The position numbers were made by a program, and so were the translations under genes. A stretch of DNA of 45,285 bases, taken from contig JASJQH010006902.1 in assembly GCA_040143965.1 (NCBI GenBank), forward strand, positions 1 to 45,285, given 5' to 3'. Origin of the DNA: Basidiobolus ranarum (taxonomy: Eukaryota). The notes below the pieces were generated by a model. That model was given only the letters and a program-made list of their open reading frames with translations, was not told the DNA's origin and ran no database searches. Positions within the stretch are counted from its first letter, which is position 1, and each line of letters starts with the position of its first letter. Below, in pieces: positions 27,781-43,970 of this stretch.

Positions 27781-29172
27781 ATGGGCGTACTAGTATATCT
27801 CGCTGCTTCAGCTGCCGCTATCGGAGGCTTTCTCTTTGGTTACGATGTGGGTGTTATCAGTGGTGTACTGATTATGGATCCCTTCGAAGACCGCTTTGGT
27901 TATGCTCACAATTCATTGTTGAAGGGCTTCATTGTCAGTAGTCTCGTGCTGGGCTGTTTCTTCGGTTCATTAGCTGCATCATATTTGGCTGATCGCTTTG
28001 GTCGTAAAGTCAGTATTATCATTGGAGGCATTATGTTCACCATTGGTGGAGCTCTCCAAGCTTCCTCATTCGAGATTGGACAGTTGCTCGTTGGACGTAT
28101 CGTTGCAGGTTTAGCTATTGGCGTGTTGTCTATGGTAGTTCCATTGTATCAATCAGAAATCGCACCCAAAGAAATCCGTGGTACTCTTGTGTCGATGCAA
28201 CAACTAGCTATCACCATTGGTATCTTTGTCAGTTTCTTGATCAATCTTGGGTGTGCCAAGATCGAAGGAGGAGCCAGTTGGAGAATCCCACTTGGTATTC
28301 AGTGTGTCCCTGCTGTTACCTTGGCTTTGGTCATGTTGATTCTACCAAAATCCCCACGTTGGCTCACATCTAAAGGGCGTACTGATGAGGCCATGGAAGT
28401 ATTGCGCAAGGTTGCCACTAATCCAGAGGAAGAGATGGAGGAAATGAATGATGCCATCCGTATGGAACAAGAAATGGAGAAGCCCTCTTGGTTGGAACTT
28501 TTAGGACCTAATCTTCGTCGTCGTGTTCTTATTGGAATCGCCATCCAAGTCTTCCAACAACTTACCGGAATCAATGCTGTCATGTACTATGCTCCTACTA
28601 TCTTCAAAACTGCCGGATTCGTTGGTAGCACTGCTCAACTCACCGCTACAGCCATCAATGGAGCTGTGAATGTATGCATGACCATTCCAGCTGTCATTTA
28701 TGTTGATCGTTTAGGTCGTCGCCCACTTTTGCTCGCTGGTGCCGCCTTGATGGCTTTGGCCATGATCTTGGTTGGTGCTTTGATTGCCATTTTCGCCCCT
28801 CGAAACTTCGACGACAAGTCAGCTGGTTATGCTACCATTGCACTGATCTATATGTTCGTCGCATTCTTTGCCTGTACCTGGGGACCTATTGGTTGGATTT
28901 ACCCATCAGAAATCTACTCTACCCGTGTCCGTGCCAAGTGCATGAGTATTACCACCGCTTCTAACTGGGCCTTCAACTTCATCATTGCTCTTGTCGTTCC
29001 ACCCTTGATCAACTCTATTAGCTGGGGGTTGTATATCATCTTTGGAGCATGTGGTGTCCTCATGTTCCTGTTTGTGTACTTCTTTGTACCTGAGACTAAA
29101 GGAAAGAGTTTGGAACAAATCGATCATATGCTTGGTGGTCGTGTAAATCTCGAAGAGAAAAACAAAGTCTAA
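27781..29172 (+). CDS. MFS sugar porter (hexose transporter), intronless
   Basis: GGFLFGYDVG, ADRFGRK, YQSEIAPKEIRG, PKSPRWL, FQQLTGINAVMYYA, VDRLGRR, PETKGKSLE; about 12 hydrophobic segments. Confidence 0.95.
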   Translation: MGVLVYLAASAAAIGGFLFGYDVGVISGVLIMDPFEDRFGYAHNSLLKGFIVSSLVLGCFFGSLAASYLADRFGRKVSIIIGGIMFTIGGALQASSFEIGQLLVGRIVAGLAIGVLSMVVPLYQSEIAPKEIRGTLVSMQQLAITIGIFVSFLINLGCAKIEGGASWRIPLGIQCVPAVTLALVMLILPKSPRWLTSKGRTDEAMEVLRKVATNPEEEMEEMNDAIRMEQEMEKPSWLELLGPNLRRRVLIGIAIQVFQQLTGINAVMYYAPTIFKTAGFVGSTAQLTATAINGAVNVCMTIPAVIYVDRLGRRPLLLAGAALMALAMILVGALIAIFAPRNFDDKSAGYATIALIYMFVAFFACTWGPIGWIYPSEIYSTRVRAKCMSITTASNWAFNFIIALVVPPLINSISWGLYIIFGACGVLMFLFVYFFVPETKGKSLEQIDHMLGGRVNLEEKNKV

Positions 29173-36021: not shown

Positions 36022-37051
36022 ATGGGCGTACTAGTATATCTCACTGTTTCAGCTTCCGCGATCGGAGGCTTTCTCTTTGGTTGCGATGTGGGTGTTATCA
36101 GTGGTGTACTGATTATGGATCCCTTTGAAGACCGCTTTGGTTATGCTCACAATTCATTGTTGAAGGGCTTCATTGTCAGTAGTCTTGTGCAGGGCTGTTT
36201 CTTCGGTTCATTAGCTGCATCGTACTTGGCTGATCGCTTTGGTCGTAAAGTCAGTATCATCATTGGAAGTATTATGTCCACTATTGGTAGCGCTCTCCAA
36301 GCTTCCTTATTCGAGATTGGACAGATACTCGTTGGACGTATTGTTGCAGGTTTGGCTATTGGTGTGTTGTCTATGGTAGTTCCATTGTATCAATCAGAAA
36401 TTGCACTCAAGGAAATCCGTGGTACTCTCGTGTCGATGCAACAGCTTGCTATCACTATTGGTCTAAGTGGCAGGTCCCACTATCTTCAAAACTGCAGGAT
36501 TCGTAGGTAGCACTGCTCAACTCACCGCTACAGCCATTAATGGAGCTGTGAATGTACCCACGACCATTCCAGCTGTCATTTATGTCGATCGTCTAGGCCG
36601 TCGCCCACTTTTGCTCGCTGGTACCGCCTTGATGGCTTTGGCCATGATCTTGGTTGGTGCTTTGATTGCCATCTTCGCTCCTCAAAACTACGACGACAAG
36701 TTAGCTGGCTTTGCTATCATTGCACTAATCTATATATTCGTCGCATTCTTCGCCTGTACCTGGGGACCTATCGGTTGGATTTACCCATCAGAAATCTACT
36801 CCACTCGTGTCCGTGCCAAGTGCATGAGTATTACTACCGCTTCTAACTGGGCCTTTAACTTCATTGCTCTTGTCGTTCCACCCTTGATCGACTCCATTAG
36901 CTGGCGATTGTATATCATCTTTGGAGTATGTGGTGTTCTCATGTTCCTATTTGTGTACTTCTTTGTACCTGAGACTAAAGGAAAGAGTTTGGAACACATC
37001 GGTCATATGCTTGGTGGTCGTGTAAATCTTGAAGAGGAAAATAAAGTTTAA
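36022..37051 (+). pseudogene. Duplicated sugar-transporter pseudogene (internal deletion and frameshift)
   Basis: Highly similar to 27781-29172, including ~235 bp of promoter; lacks ~28222-28593; split into two ORFs at ~36461-36473; substitutions at conserved residues (GYD>GCD, APKE>ALKE, VLG>VQG). Confidence 0.9.
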
Positions 37052-39125: not shown

Positions 39126-39190
39126 GAACACAATACTTCTCGATAGAACACATGAACACAATACTTCTCGATAGAACACATGAACACAAT
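39126..39190. repeat. 28-bp tandem repeat x2.3
   Basis: GAACACAATACTTCTCGATAGAACACAT at 39126, 39154 and partial at 39182. Confidence 0.9.
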
Positions 39191-39449
39191 TCTTCTTGTA
39201 ACAGGGCTCAGAGTCGTTTGTATAACAACAATGTTGATCGTTTCCCTTTATGTTAATGCGACATGGCATCGATTGAACTGAAACATGATATTTCAATAGT
39301 TAAGTCAACAAACTGTCCCCTGTACTTCTATCATCACTTACGTGGCTTAGCTTCTGGTTAAGATATATGCCACAATATCTATACACAGTTAAGAGATATC
39401 ATTCGCATATCTATTTAAACGTGCAGACACATCTTCCTAGTTATCAACA

Positions 39450-39902
39450 ATGAAGTCTATAATCCTGCTCTTCGCTTCACTGGCCTCGGCCGCATCTGTA
39501 AGTCAACGCTTCGGTAATCAAGAGATTCTGAAGGTGCAGAATCCTATCGAATTCTTGGAACCAGCTGATGTTCAGGATCCTCTTCAGGCATACGCTCCTG
39601 ATTGCATAAAGACAGTTAATGCTGGTGCTGCAACTGTTCTAAATGCCATCTATGAGCAAGAATGTGCCTTGATTACCTTCTCCTCTGGAGTGATCACCCG
39701 TGACTACAAATACAACTGTTGTGGAGCTAGTACATGGATTCGAGTCAATATGGTGGACTGGGAGAGGCTTCGGGAAGCTGGGAACTTGGACGGCTTTAGA
39801 TATCAGCACGTTACTTCCAAGGACAACACTTATTCCATCAACTTCAGGAAAATGAGCGGGAAAACTCCCGGAAATATTTCGCCAGAAGAATTTCTTCCTT
39901 AA
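39450..39902 (+). CDS. Small secreted protein of unknown function (150 aa, 4 Cys), intronless
   Basis: Signal peptide MKSIILLFASLASA; TATTTAAA at ~39412; TCAACAATG start context; the degenerate paralog at 43774 supports a real gene family. Confidence 0.8.
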   Translation: MKSIILLFASLASAASVSQRFGNQEILKVQNPIEFLEPADVQDPLQAYAPDCIKTVNAGAATVLNAIYEQECALITFSSGVITRDYKYNCCGASTWIRVNMVDWERLREAGNLDGFRYQHVTSKDNTYSINFRKMSGKTPGNISPEEFLP

Positions 39903-40110
39903 GTACGTTATTCCATGCTGTACTGGAATTTCTAAAATAAATCATTACCTGTTTGACAATGCGTCTATTACTCTTATTAAACACTCAAAGCTATTACCAA
40001 AATGGTACTCGGGTATAGCATATGTGTATTTTTAGTGTACAGCATTGGATTGAAACTCCATATAACGAATTATTCCACCACCCGTTATGTAGTTCTAAGC
40101 ACCGATGAAT

Positions 40111-40164
40111 TCAGTAGGCACCTTTACTTGAAGTGAATCGAACTCAGTAGGCACCTTTACTTGA
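40111..40164. repeat. 21-bp direct repeat, 33-bp period
   Basis: TCAGTAGGCACCTTTACTTGA at 40111 and 40144. Confidence 0.9.
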
Positions 40165-40240: not shown

Positions 40241-40480
40241 GAAGCTTGTTTCATTGCATTCATCATAAGCATAACCTGACTCACCACTTCTATCATAAAT
40301 ACAGCCTGACTCATTGCTTTATATCATAAAAGTACAATCTGGTCCATTGTTTTCATTATAAACATAATTTTATTCCTTGCTTTCATCATAAATATAACCT
40401 GATTCATGACCTTCATGATAAGCATAACTTGCTTCATTGCCTTCATCATAAACTTATTTTGATTCATTACTTTCACCAGG
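40241..40480 (-). repeat. Degenerate ~30-bp tandem array (~8 units); minus strand reads as a decayed decapeptide repeat
   Basis: AT(C/T/G)ATAA anchors at 40262, 40292, 40323, 40355, 40385, 40415, 40445; minus translation ...VYDEGNEASYAYHEGHESGYIYDESKE*... Confidence 0.8.
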
Positions 40481-40672
40481 CCTAACTAGTGGTGACACGG
40501 TACAAGATAGATAATGACTCGCACAAAGAGCAACACAAGGTCATAGGAACTAAGCCACAGTAAATCCAATGCTATATAATCAGTGAAGCGTAGGAAACAA
40601 AGATCAAGATAGAAAATTACTTGCTACTTTTCTATTTAATAGCAAGCAGCGTTCTCCCGCCAGGTTCCAAAT

Positions 40673-43069
40673 ATGAACGATAGCGACTTCAGCACGTTTG
40701 CCAAGATTTCCACTAGTCATCTTATGGGTCAAAACAAGCGCGACTTCATCCTAGGAGAGGGGAACAAATGCCTTGAACCTAAAGAAGCAAACTTCAGTAT
40801 TAAATCAATATTCCCGGAGCATTCAGCATCGGATATTATACGAATTGCAAATTTGGCGAGAAAAGAGCGGAATGGTGCGATATATGACGAAGGAAAGGTC
40901 AAATTGAAAGGTGAAGATTGTGGTAAGGTGATTGAGGAGTCGAGGTATGATCCTGAGACAGAGCAAGAGGAAATCTTGAAAAATGAATATCTAAAACTTT
41001 TAGGGTGTGCCCGTGAGGACCTGGGCAGCATCCTGAATATGACGAGCCCTTTGAAGCAGCTGTTGCGTGGCGAGAAAGAAGGTGGAGTCACGTCAGAAGA
41101 GTATGAAAAGATGAGAAAGCTCCGAAAAGGCGAGTCAGAAATGGTTGGTGGTGCTCGGAAGAAGCAATCATGGCCGGTTCTAAAACTGCAACAACAAGAA
41201 CTAGCCTGCTACCTAATCAAAAGTCTTCACGAAACAGAAGAGGTGAACCCAAAATGGCTTGAGTTGGCTAAGTTCCCAGAACAAGTGGAAGAGCAGGACT
41301 ATATTGATATGTTGAACGGCATCGCAAGCTTGGCATTGGATCCAACATCAGACACTGAGAAGCGGTATTTAGTCGATACAGACTATCATCCACAACACGC
41401 AGAGACATGGTGCGAGAAGTGTCAAGTAGGATCTAGCAGGATGAAACAAAATAGCAGATTAGATGTAATTGAGTTTGAGAAAACGGAGTTTGCAGAGCTG
41501 AACAAGCCAAGTAAGTGTCCAGGATGTAATGGAGCGTTAACAATAAGGAAGATCGGAGCAGGAGTGTGGAACTGGGATAGGTGTCGTCCGGCAACACTCT
41601 CTGTTACATCGGCCCTACTCAAAATGTGGGATAAACACGCCAATGAACAAGAAGGTGGGCAGCAGGTTGTAGCGATTGGCAACCATCTCGCGGCTGAGTT
41701 CATATATTACAGCAGGGTAATAGCTCAGTTGATTGCATCGAAACATATGCCGTTAAACGGTAGGCCAACGAGCTTGATAGAGTCAGCCAGATGGCCAGTG
41801 AAATGGGGAATCCTCCCGGATGATCTGCAGCAAATACTTTCTGATGCCGAAGGGGCAACTAGCCGGTATTGCACTGATGACTGTGGGATTTGCATCTCCC
41901 GAAGATCGGACTCATGGGGTGACATCGCGATCAATATGGGCAGAGCGGACTTGTATGGCAGGCTTCACCCATTCGCTGATGAGGAGAGCGTGTGGTGGAT
42001 CGGTGATTGCATGATTATGGCAAGCTATCTAGACACTCTCGGGAAGCTCAAAGGAAATGCCGCGAGCAAGGCACTAAAGTACGTTGCTCACACCCTTGCA
42101 AACCAGACGAATATGGCGACGATGGGAACTGCTAATCTGGCTGTACTCACTCGTACATTGCTCAACACCGAAACGTACTTTGCTCGGAGGCAGATGTGGG
42201 ATCGACCGCCCAAAGTATTCAAGCAAGATGAAGGCATCGCAGTGGAGTTAGAGGTCCCATTAGGCGATGCCGTGTTTGCCAGATTATACGAAGGTATGAC
42301 TTTGCCCTATAACGAGCTTTTCAGTATTAGTACAGGGTGCATGGAATGTGTGGACTGGGTTAGGTTCGGTGGAACGTTGAGTATCGTGGCACATGATGCC
42401 ATGGATTTCACAAATGACATTCTGTCGGGTGAAAATATGAACATTTTTAGGATGGTAGCAAGTAAAGGTTTCGCCGTACTCAAGGCGTTTGCAATCGGGG
42501 TGAATGAGATAATAAGAGTGTTAACATCCGTCGACGTGGTGCACAAGAAGTGTAGTGGAGTGATACGTGCTAGCATTGGCGCGTCATTAAGTTGGTATTT
42601 CTGTTGTTGTCGATACCGACTAGGCGAGTGTTGTGCAGTTGTTATGCCAGCAACCGAGGGGTGGGCAGGCGGTCGAGGAGAGGTGGCTTTAGCTTGCAGG
42701 ATCTTGCAGGTACCGTCACGCATTGAAAAAACGTTATGTGATTTAGTAGAAACGAACCTGGTCGTCAAAGATGTGGAAAATTGGTGCTGTCCGGAGCCAG
42801 TCAAGATGGATGACATGACAACAGATCGGATCAAGAGGATGATTGCTGGTGAACTTGATGCTAAGGAAGCATACGAATGCATAGCCTTGAATTATGGATG
42901 GCACTGTTCTAGATCGGTGCATGCTAACTACGATGCAGGTGAATGCTCAAGTTGCACTTTCAGCCAGCTCTGTGCACAAGAGATGTTGAAGTGTGGGACA
43001 TTAACTAGATTTGTTGAATTTGGTGCGTTGTATGGGTCATATAACTGTTTTTCTGAGAAGGACAAGTAA
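40673..43069 (+). CDS. 798-aa intronless protein: unknown N-terminal region with CxxC/CxxC zinc ribbon fused to a putative non-canonical class I terpene cyclase domain
   Basis: The long clean ORF is directly visible. The functional call rests on motifs: GRADLYGRLHPFA...GDCMIMASYLD454TLGK, R537LYE, H574DAMDFTNDILSGENMN, W641YFCCCRY648; Cys clusters at C400/404/407 and at the C-terminus. Confidence 0.65.
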   Translation: MNDSDFSTFAKISTSHLMGQNKRDFILGEGNKCLEPKEANFSIKSIFPEHSASDIIRIANLARKERNGAIYDEGKVKLKGEDCGKVIEESRYDPETEQEEILKNEYLKLLGCAREDLGSILNMTSPLKQLLRGEKEGGVTSEEYEKMRKLRKGESEMVGGARKKQSWPVLKLQQQELACYLIKSLHETEEVNPKWLELAKFPEQVEEQDYIDMLNGIASLALDPTSDTEKRYLVDTDYHPQHAETWCEKCQVGSSRMKQNSRLDVIEFEKTEFAELNKPSKCPGCNGALTIRKIGAGVWNWDRCRPATLSVTSALLKMWDKHANEQEGGQQVVAIGNHLAAEFIYYSRVIAQLIASKHMPLNGRPTSLIESARWPVKWGILPDDLQQILSDAEGATSRYCTDDCGICISRRSDSWGDIAINMGRADLYGRLHPFADEESVWWIGDCMIMASYLDTLGKLKGNAASKALKYVAHTLANQTNMATMGTANLAVLTRTLLNTETYFARRQMWDRPPKVFKQDEGIAVELEVPLGDAVFARLYEGMTLPYNELFSISTGCMECVDWVRFGGTLSIVAHDAMDFTNDILSGENMNIFRMVASKGFAVLKAFAIGVNEIIRVLTSVDVVHKKCSGVIRASIGASLSWYFCCCRYRLGECCAVVMPATEGWAGGRGEVALACRILQVPSRIEKTLCDLVETNLVVKDVENWCCPEPVKMDDMTTDRIKRMIAGELDAKEAYECIALNYGWHCSRSVHANYDAGECSSCTFSQLCAQEMLKCGTLTRFVEFGALYGSYNCFSEKDK

Positions 43070-43773
43070 ATTGGATGCCGACTAAATGAAGCAGTTGTTA
43101 GCCTAACCCTAAGGTTGCATTAGTAGCCCACCTTTCTAGTACATTGAAAATCACTTATTGAAAATAACTTCCCATTTTTTGTTTCTACTATTTCATTACC
43201 ACCTCCTTGGTTGGCATGAGTAAAAGCTAACCCTAAGTTGTATGTGAAGTTGATCTAATAAAGAAATCGTTGCTATCAAGAAATATCATTGCTACCCTGC
43301 TTATAATCTATTTTAATCCTAAATCTGAATTCTTGTGTTGTGCTCTTGCTTATTTTCACCACTAATATTGAGCAAACACAAGGGTTAGGTGCGCATTATT
43401 AACAACCAAAACCTTCTGCATGCTTCCTAGAACAAATTTTTTTATATACATGTGGTGAATGCAATATAATATTACTATGTAGTTCAGGTTTGTTTGTATT
43501 ACAGACATGCTGATCATATACATTTATATCAATATACCAGGTCAAGTTGAACCATATTATTTTATTGGCTATAGTCAACAAGTTGTCTTATTATTCTGTT
43601 GGTTATAGTTGACAAGCTGTCAGTTGTACTTCTATCAGTTCACCTCACCTCACTTCACCTACATAGCTTAGCTTGGGGCTATGCTTAATTACTTATGATA
43701 CAATATCTATGATTGGGGGAGGGTAGTATTCACATATCCATATCAGCATGCTTAGAAATCTTTGCTATCAACA

Positions 43774-43970
43774 TTAAAGTATATAATTCTCCTCTTTGCC
43801 TCACTTGCCTCAGCTGCATCTTTAGGCCAAAGTTTTGGTAATTCAGAGATTCTGAAGGTGCAGAATCCTTCTGAATTTTGGGAGTCAGCTGAGGTTCAGG
43901 ATTCTCTTCAGCAATATGCTCCTGATTGTACAGAGACAGTTAATGCTGGCACTGTAATTGTTCAAAATGT
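43774..43970 (+). pseudogene. Truncated pseudogene copy of the 39450 secreted protein
   Basis: Aligns with 39450-~39645; ATG replaced by TTA (TATCAACA-TTA-AAG); similarity ends after ~65 codons; upstream promoter (~43570-43773) is also homologous to ~39296-39449. Confidence 0.85.

Follow-up and report, generated by a model that had tools for sequence, protein, structure and literature searches.

A very small protein family with an N-terminal zinc ribbon and a candidate non-canonical class-I-type cyclase body in Basidiobolus ranarum

Introduction

Contig JASJQH010006902.1 of the Basidiobolus ranarum assembly GCA_040143965.1 carries, near its end, a gene for a protein of 798 amino acids (aa), here called P0001. 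A sequence-only reading of the 45,285 nucleotides analysed (the window, to which all coordinates refer) had split this protein into a cyclase-like domain and, ahead of it, an unknown module of about 390 residues with a zinc ribbon (40673-41860, which corresponds to aa 1 to 396). It had proposed that the module might be a sensor or a degenerate HET-like effector. What is the N-terminal part of P0001, does it belong with the rest of the protein, and what might the C-terminal body do? We find that the stretch in which a HET-like or sensor module had been suspected is the zinc ribbon of a protein family, preceded by a featureless extension. P0001 as a whole is a candidate non-canonical class-I-type cyclase with this ribbon built into its N terminus, and the evidence for its enzymatic identity is weak.

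Results

The zinc ribbon is a collinear feature of a very small family

A phmmer search of 1,835,955,588 representative sequences with P0001 returned seven proteins at E ≤ 0.001, one of which was the query. The six others, all separate clusters at the 50% level, are P0002 (727 aa, metagenome), P0003 (549 aa, Acytostelium subglobosum), the metagenome fragments P0004, P0005, and P0006, and P0007 (537 aa, B. ranarum). P0007 comes from the same genus and is about 20% identical to P0001; we take it to be a Basidiobolus paralogue. At the 90% level, P0001 matched only itself. P0009 and P0010 fall in the same cluster as P0002 and do not count as independent of it. Two more metagenome fragments, P0011 and P0012, came from a word-index search started from P0004. 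Word-index protein searches with P0001 (aa 1 to 798) or with alignment A1 recovered only P0001 itself; the A1 search scored only the 8000 candidates that shared most words. Scanning metagenome, viral, and prokaryotic genome contigs with an A1 pattern gave 46, 24, and 7 pattern matches, respectively, none of which was confirmed. In all relatives, the best-scoring phmmer stretch begins at or after P0001 residue 355, and the matches cover aa 355 or 397 to 784. A maximum-likelihood tree of eight core sequences, with P0006, P0009, and P0010 left out, resolved only the metagenome clade, and every other branch was very long. Therefore, the tree supports no inference on transfer.

Four motifs had been picked out in the N-terminal part by the sequence-only reading, ISTSHLMG (aa 12 to 19), CEKC (247 to 250), CPGC (282 to 285), and GAGVWNW (295 to 301), and all four are found at these positions. 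The last three form a zinc-ribbon-like Cys4 unit ahead of a predicted helical C-terminal body, as had been described. The ribbon consists of a CxxC knuckle, about 31 residues with a beta-hairpin, a second CxxC knuckle, and then G-x-G-V-x-N-W. In an AlphaFold2 (AF2) model, DSSP assigned strands at 269 to 274 and 290 to 296, between the cysteine knuckles, at low confidence. The unit therefore has the structural hallmark of a zinc ribbon, two CxxC knuckles around a beta-hairpin, with hairpin strands that are predicted at low confidence.

The ribbon recurs in the relatives. When P0001 was compared with P0002 by BLASTP, the second high-scoring segment pair aligned residues 161 to 648 of P0001 collinearly with residues 61 to 576 of P0002, and it paired WCEKC with YCANC, KCPGCNG with TCE-CDG, and GA-GVWNW with GTRTVVNW. 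Both an L-INS-i alignment and the MAFFT alignment A3 held the two knuckles and the VxNW in register in P0001, the P0002 cluster (the second knuckle being CxC in P0002), P0006, and P0007. The pattern C..C-x15-45-C.{1,2}C-x5-20-V.N[WV] was present in four of the five assessable N termini, those of P0001, P0002, P0006, and P0007; P0004, P0005, P0011, and P0012 begin downstream of the ribbon, so they could not be assessed. Shuffled versions of the four positive sequences (aa 1 to 396 in the case of P0001) matched the pattern 0, 0, 0, and 9 times in 5000, respectively. Because of this collinear recurrence in four of five assessable lineages, we regard the ribbon as a family feature and not as a foreign fusion. 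Two observations weigh against this assignment. The Acytostelium protein, P0003, retains GEGVANW and lacks the ribbon cysteines, and pairwise similarity over the ribbon is weak (z of 2.2 to 2.7, with 11 to 22 of 500 shuffles reaching the same score).

All Pfam ribbon models stayed below their gathering scores. The best was DUF7101, with E values of 0.0094 to 0.058 (at best 16.4 bits against a cut-off of 27, E 0.0094, on an 87-aa piece); zf-IS66 gave E 0.059 and Zn_ribbon_8 gave E 0.11. An hmmscan of aa 1 to 396 gave only DUF7101 and Zn_Ribbon_TF, both at E of about 0.06. The two CxxC knuckles around a short predicted beta-hairpin are common to the P0001 ribbon and to DUF7101 (PF23392), Zn_ribbon_8 (PF09723), zf-IS66 (PF13005), and Zn_Ribbon_TF (PF08271), whereas the trailing G-x-G-V-x-N-W is specific to the P0001 family. 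The ribbon may bind zinc and play a structural role.

Between the ribbon and the body lies a predicted helical hairpin with a linker (aa 302 to 395). This segment is 9 to 21% identical to the relatives, compared with 20 to 39% in core segments of 396 to 660, and its shuffle z is 0.5 to 1.5. By these alignments, the ribbon and the linker date back to the origin of this very small and uncharacterised family and are collinear in it.

The first 240 residues are a lineage-specific extension

At E ≤ 0.001, phmmer found no relative of aa 1 to 240 among 1.84e9 representatives, and no match reached aa 1 to 354. Against the N-terminal extension of P0002, aa 1 to 240 gave a z of -1.06, and 460 of 500 shuffles scored at least as well. 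ESM Atlas returned "no usable hit" for aa 1 to 395, and no internal repeats were found in aa 1 to 400. The region ahead of the ribbon also differs among the relatives: in P0002 and the metagenome clade it is a stretch of about 140 aa that is unrelated to the P0001 extension, and P0007 starts four residues ahead of its own ribbon, without an N-terminal extension. On these comparisons, aa 1 to about 240 are an extension found only in the P0001 gene, a lineage-specific add-on at a place that is variable within the family.

The N-terminal part had been called charged and probably helical. Charged it is: aa 61 to 170 contain 20% K/R and 20% D/E, 40% charged residues in all. For the second property, DSSP did assign helices in the AF2 model, but the predicted local distance difference test score (pLDDT) is below 50 over aa 1 to 189 and 214 to 385, and the ribbon contains two strands. 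The extension is probably translated but largely disordered. Inside it lies a bipartite pair that resembles a nuclear localisation signal, RKLRK-x11-RKK (RKLRKGESEMVGGARKKQS, aa 148 to 166, 41114-41170, forward strand); the pattern is a loose one. This basic pair may act as a nuclear-localisation element.

Instead of one module of about 390 residues, there are three parts, namely an extension without relatives, the ribbon, and the linker, an anatomy in which we have good confidence. The idea of a conserved fusion holds for the ribbon and linker, which are collinear in P0002, P0006, and P0007, but not for aa 1 to 240, which are unique to P0001. For deletion constructs, the suitable cut points are therefore near aa 240 and near aa 395, and the 390 residues should not be handled as one module.

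The stretch that encodes P0001 is coding. Its single uninterrupted open reading frame (ORF), read from stop to stop, opens only at 40643, ten codons upstream of 40673, so that 40673 is its first ATG. With stop codons at their local frequency of 0.063, a run of 240 open codons has a chance probability of about 1.6e-7, and a run of 390 one of about 9e-12. Frame 0 of the forward strand had the top codon-usage score among the six frames in aa 1 to 120, 121 to 240, 241 to 396, and 397 to 798. The GC content is 0.42 to 0.53 across the whole ORF and about 0.33 to 0.38 in the flanks. Upstream, a TATATAA lies 92 bp from 40673 with no ATG in between, there is an A at -3, and the stretch 200 to 430 bp ahead of the start codon is taken up by a degenerate tandem array with a 30-bp unit (7.6 copies, 67% matches). 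The TATA-like site and the upstream region may serve as a promoter.

Translation could instead start at an internal methionine (M123, M147, M157, or M213, the last before the ribbon). Up to about the first 212 residues would then be outside the protein, and the upstream frame would be a 5' leader or a recently dead exon. This would fit an extension that has no relative and a pLDDT below 50, as well as a paralogue, P0007, that begins just before its ribbon. However, an open frame of 240 codons is improbable by chance, frame 0 is the best of six in both halves of the extension, a TATATAA with no intervening ATG and an A at -3 precede 40673, and P0002 also has a pre-ribbon extension, of about 140 aa. 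We consider an internal start unlikely.

HET and defence candidates were rejected

The proposed likeness to HET (PF06985) came down to the "SH..G" resemblance at aa 12 to 19. At E ≤ 10, neither the whole of P0001 nor aa 1 to 396 matched this domain in hmmscan, whose filters lose most matches above E of about 0.1, and aa 1 to 240 have no relatives. PADLOC found no defence system for P0001, P0002, or P0007, and nothing points to the suggested defence or sensor role. A plasmid or phage origin of aa 1 to 396 was rejected too, since no tblastn match turned up in 72,556 plasmid and 50,697 phage records. PHROGs gave a match only at E 0.17 and the zf-IS66 match was below threshold, so a phage or transposon origin was likewise set aside. 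The sequence-only reading would have been overturned by a transposon match in an N-terminal part that is never fused in homologues. No such match was found, and for the ribbon the opposite of the second point holds.

In a broader form of this idea, the N-terminal part would be an autonomous domain. It could be a nucleic-acid- or protein-binding ribbon with a nuclear-targeting extension, acting as a regulator or sensor whose helical body binds a ligand, or it could be a HET-like or defence effector. In favour of this, nucleic-acid binding is common among zinc ribbons, the extension has a high share of charged residues, and the basic pair RKLRK-x11-RKK would suit nuclear targeting. However, only sub-threshold ribbon models turned up among Pfam domains at E ≤ 10, and the PADLOC and PHROGs results do not support an effector. 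Among the phmmer matches, the ribbon never occurs by itself, and its distance from the body that follows is constant; the extension is not conserved even inside the family. We therefore judge an autonomous domain to be very improbable.

The predicted helical core carries conserved, possibly cyclase-like residues

The phmmer matches and alignment A3 show a conserved core at aa 396 to 798. The label "cyclase-like" for it is a lead and not a result; it is based on language-model features, an all-helical prediction, and a residue spacing like that of BcABA3. In alignment A3, seven residues on or just after the helix at 560 to 585 are near-invariant (H574, D575, D578, N581, E587, N590, and R593), and HDxxDxxN[DH] occurs in all eight members tested. 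Other invariant or near-invariant positions are R505, C556, C559, C627, W641-Y642, C706, C758, and C761; among these, C706 is invariant and C758 and C761 nearly so, and most alignment rows also have C767. P0001 has 32 cysteines in 798 aa, several of them in conserved pairs. Because of this number and the conserved C556xxC559, C627, C706, and C758xxC761, several metal sites are possible in the protein. At the start of the core there is also a C400-x3-C404-x2-C407 cluster (41870-41893), common to the metagenome clade (CEKDCIIC) and not found in P0003 or P0007.

A canonical class I terpene synthase was considered and rejected, because none of the Pfam models PF03936, PF19086, and PF06330 matched and the DDxx(D/E) and NSE motifs were not found. 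By regular expression, DDxx[DE] is absent from P0001 and occurs in two of eight members, at non-equivalent sites; an NSE/DTE motif occurs in none of the eight. Residues 223 to 227 of P0007 read DDDME (DDxxE), about ten residues past its D454 equivalent, and no other member has DDxx[DE] there.

By ESM Atlas features, the best cluster was "alpha-ionylideneethane synthase aba3" (score 0.92, 199 of 256 features shared), a level of sharing that the tool's own note calls typical of true family members. The next clusters were TRI5/Terpene_syn_C_2 at 0.85 to 0.87, and the ten best named matches were all terpene-synthase families. The AF2 model, of full-length P0001 with nine sequences, was all-helical by DSSP over 383 to 787, at a mean pLDDT of 44.9 for the whole model. 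Most likely, aa 396 to 798 form a divergent, non-canonical class-I-type, ABA3-like isoprenoid diphosphate cyclase.

Comparison with ABA3 and other non-canonical terpene synthases

According to the available part of the ABA3 report (PMC11695735), ABA3 proteins have an all-helical class-I-like fold without Asp-rich motifs. In BcABA3, the single conserved glutamate E124 chelates Mg2+, R202, Y242, and H250 occupy the place of the NSE motif, and R312 and Y313 form an RY pair. The same part of the report describes a C-terminal structural zinc site, either Cys4 or Cys3Ser, that is far from the active site and whose loss reduces activity, and N termini that are diverse and can be deleted (PMC11695735).

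In the C-terminal part of P0001, C706, C758, C761, and C767 are candidate residues for a comparable zinc site. The spacing of conserved residues in P0001 is close to that of BcABA3. Counted from D454, R537 is at +83, H574 and N581 are at +120 and +127, and R647-Y648 is at +193. Counted from E124 of BcABA3, as numbered in the available part of the report, R202 is at +78, Y242 and H250 are at +118 and +126, and R312-Y313 is at +188 (PMC11695735). The suggested correspondence of catalytic residues is thus one of residue-number spacing, without alignment or superposition. As far as the report's available part goes, P0001 resembles ABA3 proteins (BcABA3, RuABA3, and SkABA3; 8ZAC-8ZAG) in a helical body, predicted in P0001, that lacks DDxxD and NSE (PMC11695735). 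By spacing, P0001 also has candidate counterparts, at near-equal distances, of their single conserved acidic residue, Arg, His/Tyr position, and RY pair. Further likenesses are Cys-based zinc sites (putative in P0001) outside the active site and a diverse N-terminal extension.

There are also differences from ABA3. The P0001 ribbon is N-terminal, whereas in ABA3 the Cys4 site belongs to the C-terminal part of the protein, where it lies on loop a13-a14, in the available part of the report (PMC11695735). HDxxDxxND stands in P0001 where that part of the report has Y242/H250 in ABA3, and P0001 has 798 aa compared with 458 aa in the Atlas ABA3 cluster representative. Because no sequence homology to ABA3 was detected, we do not place P0001 in the ABA3 family.

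Other non-canonical class I terpene synthases are class IB (BalTS), IC (AsR6), ID (PeuTPS), IE, and IF, as set out in the available part of their report (PMC11234867). As described there, they resemble P0001, as read here, in being unrecognisable by sequence, found only through three-dimensional similarity, and often located outside gene clusters, and they carry new acidic, ND, or R motifs in place of DDxxD and NSE; the available part of that report describes no N-terminal zinc ribbon for them (PMC11234867). Class ID shares with P0001 an ND dipeptide in its motif, and its spacing, from the same part of the report, is D95N96...N289D290...R338xxK341D342 (+194, +49) (PMC11234867). We rejected a class ID fit, since P0001 has D454...N581D582...R647 (+127, +66) and lacks RxxKD. 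For the extension, there is a precedent in a bacterial canonical terpene synthase with a non-catalytic, low-complexity N-terminal extension that affects solubility or activity; that extension is proline-rich and has no zinc ribbon, whereas the P0001 extension is charged.

Weighing the cyclase assignment

A number of results weigh against the cyclase assignment. The sequence-only reading had not recognised the architecture as characterised, and this was borne out: P0001 matched no family in a Pfam hmmscan of the whole protein at E ≤ 10, nor any NCBIfam model. In a 2026 copy of the PDB sequences, which should contain the ABA3 entries 8ZAC-8ZAG, there was no match at E ≤ 10 with P0001, profile A2, P0003, or P0007, and the only two rows that profile A3 returned (E 1.5 and 6.1) were chance matches to zinc fingers. 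No ABA3-like protein was among the phmmer matches. The AF2 model was poor (mean pLDDT as above; predicted template modelling score 0.45), with only about 560 to 790 at a pLDDT of 50 to 80. Foldseek of this model against the PDB found nothing at E ≤ 0.001 (best E 0.054), and a VIA-wide fold search matched only aa 298 to 363, at background level. According to the Atlas tool's note, shuffled proteins score at least 0.9 in 4 to 10 of 100 cases. The context of D454 is SYxDxLG, and the next residue is T in P0001 and E in most relatives. Finally, none of the ORFs seen in 29.5 to 45.3 kb was for a P450, a prenyltransferase, or another enzyme of a terpenoid pathway.

These results leave room for another reading, in which the body is no terpenoid cyclase. 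The family would consist of helical, Cys-rich metalloproteins without relation to such cyclases, and the HDxxDxxND face could serve, for instance, in metal-dependent hydrolysis or in binding. The ABA3 resemblance would then be a language-model artefact, and the ribbon would still be a family feature. The 32 cysteines with their conserved pairs fit such a protein, as do the missing matches to profile models and PDB sequences, the missing pathway neighbours, fold searches that were uninformative on a single AF2 model, and an Atlas score that some shuffled proteins reach. However, 199 shared Atlas features and ten terpene synthases among the ten best named matches argue for a cyclase, as do a spacing close to that of BcABA3, the ABA3-type use of an RY pair and of a single acidic residue at a helix end, and the all-helical prediction. 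We consider a metalloprotein of this kind possible but doubtful, and a cyclase remains the most likely identity of the body.

The literature that we searched gave no description of the P0001 family, and none of the papers listed combined a terpene synthase with a zinc ribbon. The architecture of P0001 is uncharacterised.

Proposed roles of the three parts

We suggest that the body is a non-canonical, ABA3-like enzyme that cyclises prenyl diphosphates in a Mg2+-dependent manner. Mg2+ would be held by D454 and the HDxxDxxND...E...N face, and the diphosphate by R537, R593, and R647-Y648. With Mg2+ and diphosphate bound, the conserved residues would start ionisation. The cyclase fold and these catalytic roles are both predictions. 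The N-terminal Cys4 ribbon would bind a structural Zn2+ and brace the N-terminal helical hairpin against the body or its cap. Such a role would parallel that of the BcABA3 Cys4 zinc site, which is needed for full activity according to the available part of the report (PMC11695735). The first 240 residues would be a disordered and dispensable extension, possibly with a nuclear-targeting-like function of the basic pair at 148 to 166. For the chain as a whole, an ABA3-like cyclase body, a structural-zinc ribbon, and a dispensable disordered extension, we see an even chance.

In a bolder form of this proposal, P0001 would be the founding member of a new class of terpenoid cyclases, with no sequence relationship to ABA3 or to classes IB to IF. 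HDxxDxxND would replace NSE/DTE, activity would depend on the ribbon, and the product would be an undescribed terpenoid. The family would have been scattered by gene transfer or extreme divergence over a dictyostelid, environmental organisms, and Basidiobolus, whose two paralogues share about 20% identity. We put this forward only tentatively.

No genome-mining tool that works from sequence detects non-canonical terpene synthases, and the recognition of each new class has brought new terpene skeletons. The family signature (zinc ribbon with VxNW, D454, R537xxE540, HDxxDxxND, and WY...RY) is clear enough for mutagenesis. If P0001 is active, it adds a class with a zinc ribbon built into the cyclase, and it adds to the unusual secondary metabolism reported for Basidiobolus, as given in the available part of that report (PMC7466969). 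If it is not a cyclase, it still represents an orphan family of Cys-rich metalloproteins with a very patchy distribution.

Feature coordinates and genomic neighbourhood

The features of the P0001 locus are listed in Table 1.

Table 1. Positions of P0001 features in the window
Feature	Residues (aa)	Window coordinates	Strand	Remarks
Upstream region		40245-40581	+	Degenerate 30-bp tandem array 40245-40475; TATATAA 40575-40581
Whole P0001 ORF	1-798	40673-43069	+	798 aa plus stop
Charged lineage-specific extension	1-240	40673-41392	+	Holds ISTSHLMG (aa 12-19) and the NLS-like (nuclear localisation signal-like) pair
Zinc ribbon	245-301	41405-41575	+	Two Cys knuckles and GAGVWNW
Knuckle 1, CEKC	C247-C250	41411-41422	+	
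Knuckle 2, CPGC	C282-C285	41516-41527	+	
GAGVWNW	295-301	41555-41575	+	Followed by DRCRP
Helical hairpin and linker	302-395	41576-41857	+	Predicted helices 301-323 and 329-356
Conserved all-helical (predicted) Cys-rich core	396-798	41858-43066	+	From phmmer coverage and alignment A3
SYLDTLG	451-457	42023-42043	+	Near-invariant D454, at the end of predicted helix 437-456
RLYEGMTLPY	537-546	42281-42310	+	Invariant R537 and E540
HDAMDFTNDILSGENMNIFR	574-593	42392-42451	+	Signature HDxxDxxND...E...N...R; candidate metal/diphosphate-binding helix face
RY pair	R647-Y648	42611-42616	+	Near-invariant, after W641-Y642

The contig ends 2.2 kb downstream of the P0001 gene. The other ORFs of the window are of eukaryotic or fungal type and include an Rtt109-type histone acetyltransferase, an AMP-binding enzyme, a GT2 glycosyltransferase, sugar transporters, and a kinase fragment. 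Two of the neighbouring proteins cluster at the level of at least 90% with Basidiobolus ranarum records, which places the DNA in Basidiobolus or a very close relative. No tRNA gene and no Rfam family at gathering score was found in the whole window.

A sugar-transporter copy at 36022-37048 is about 92% identical to the intact copy at 27781-29169, lacks aa 149 to 271, and has a changed frame; it looks like a truncated, pseudogene-like paralogue. Therefore, there have been several local duplications in this part of the contig. The P0001 ORF itself is flanked by two copies of a gene for a small secreted-protein-like product. The intact copy (39450-39902) encodes 150 aa with a signal-peptide-like N terminus and without a Pfam match, and its protein falls in a cluster at the level of at least 90% with a Basidiobolus ranarum record. 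The degenerate copy, 4.3 kb downstream at 43759-43969, has 81% nucleotide identity, an ATT in place of the ATG, and diverges after about 65 codons. Further short tandem duplications are located at 39126-39196, 40106-40164, and 43555-43621.

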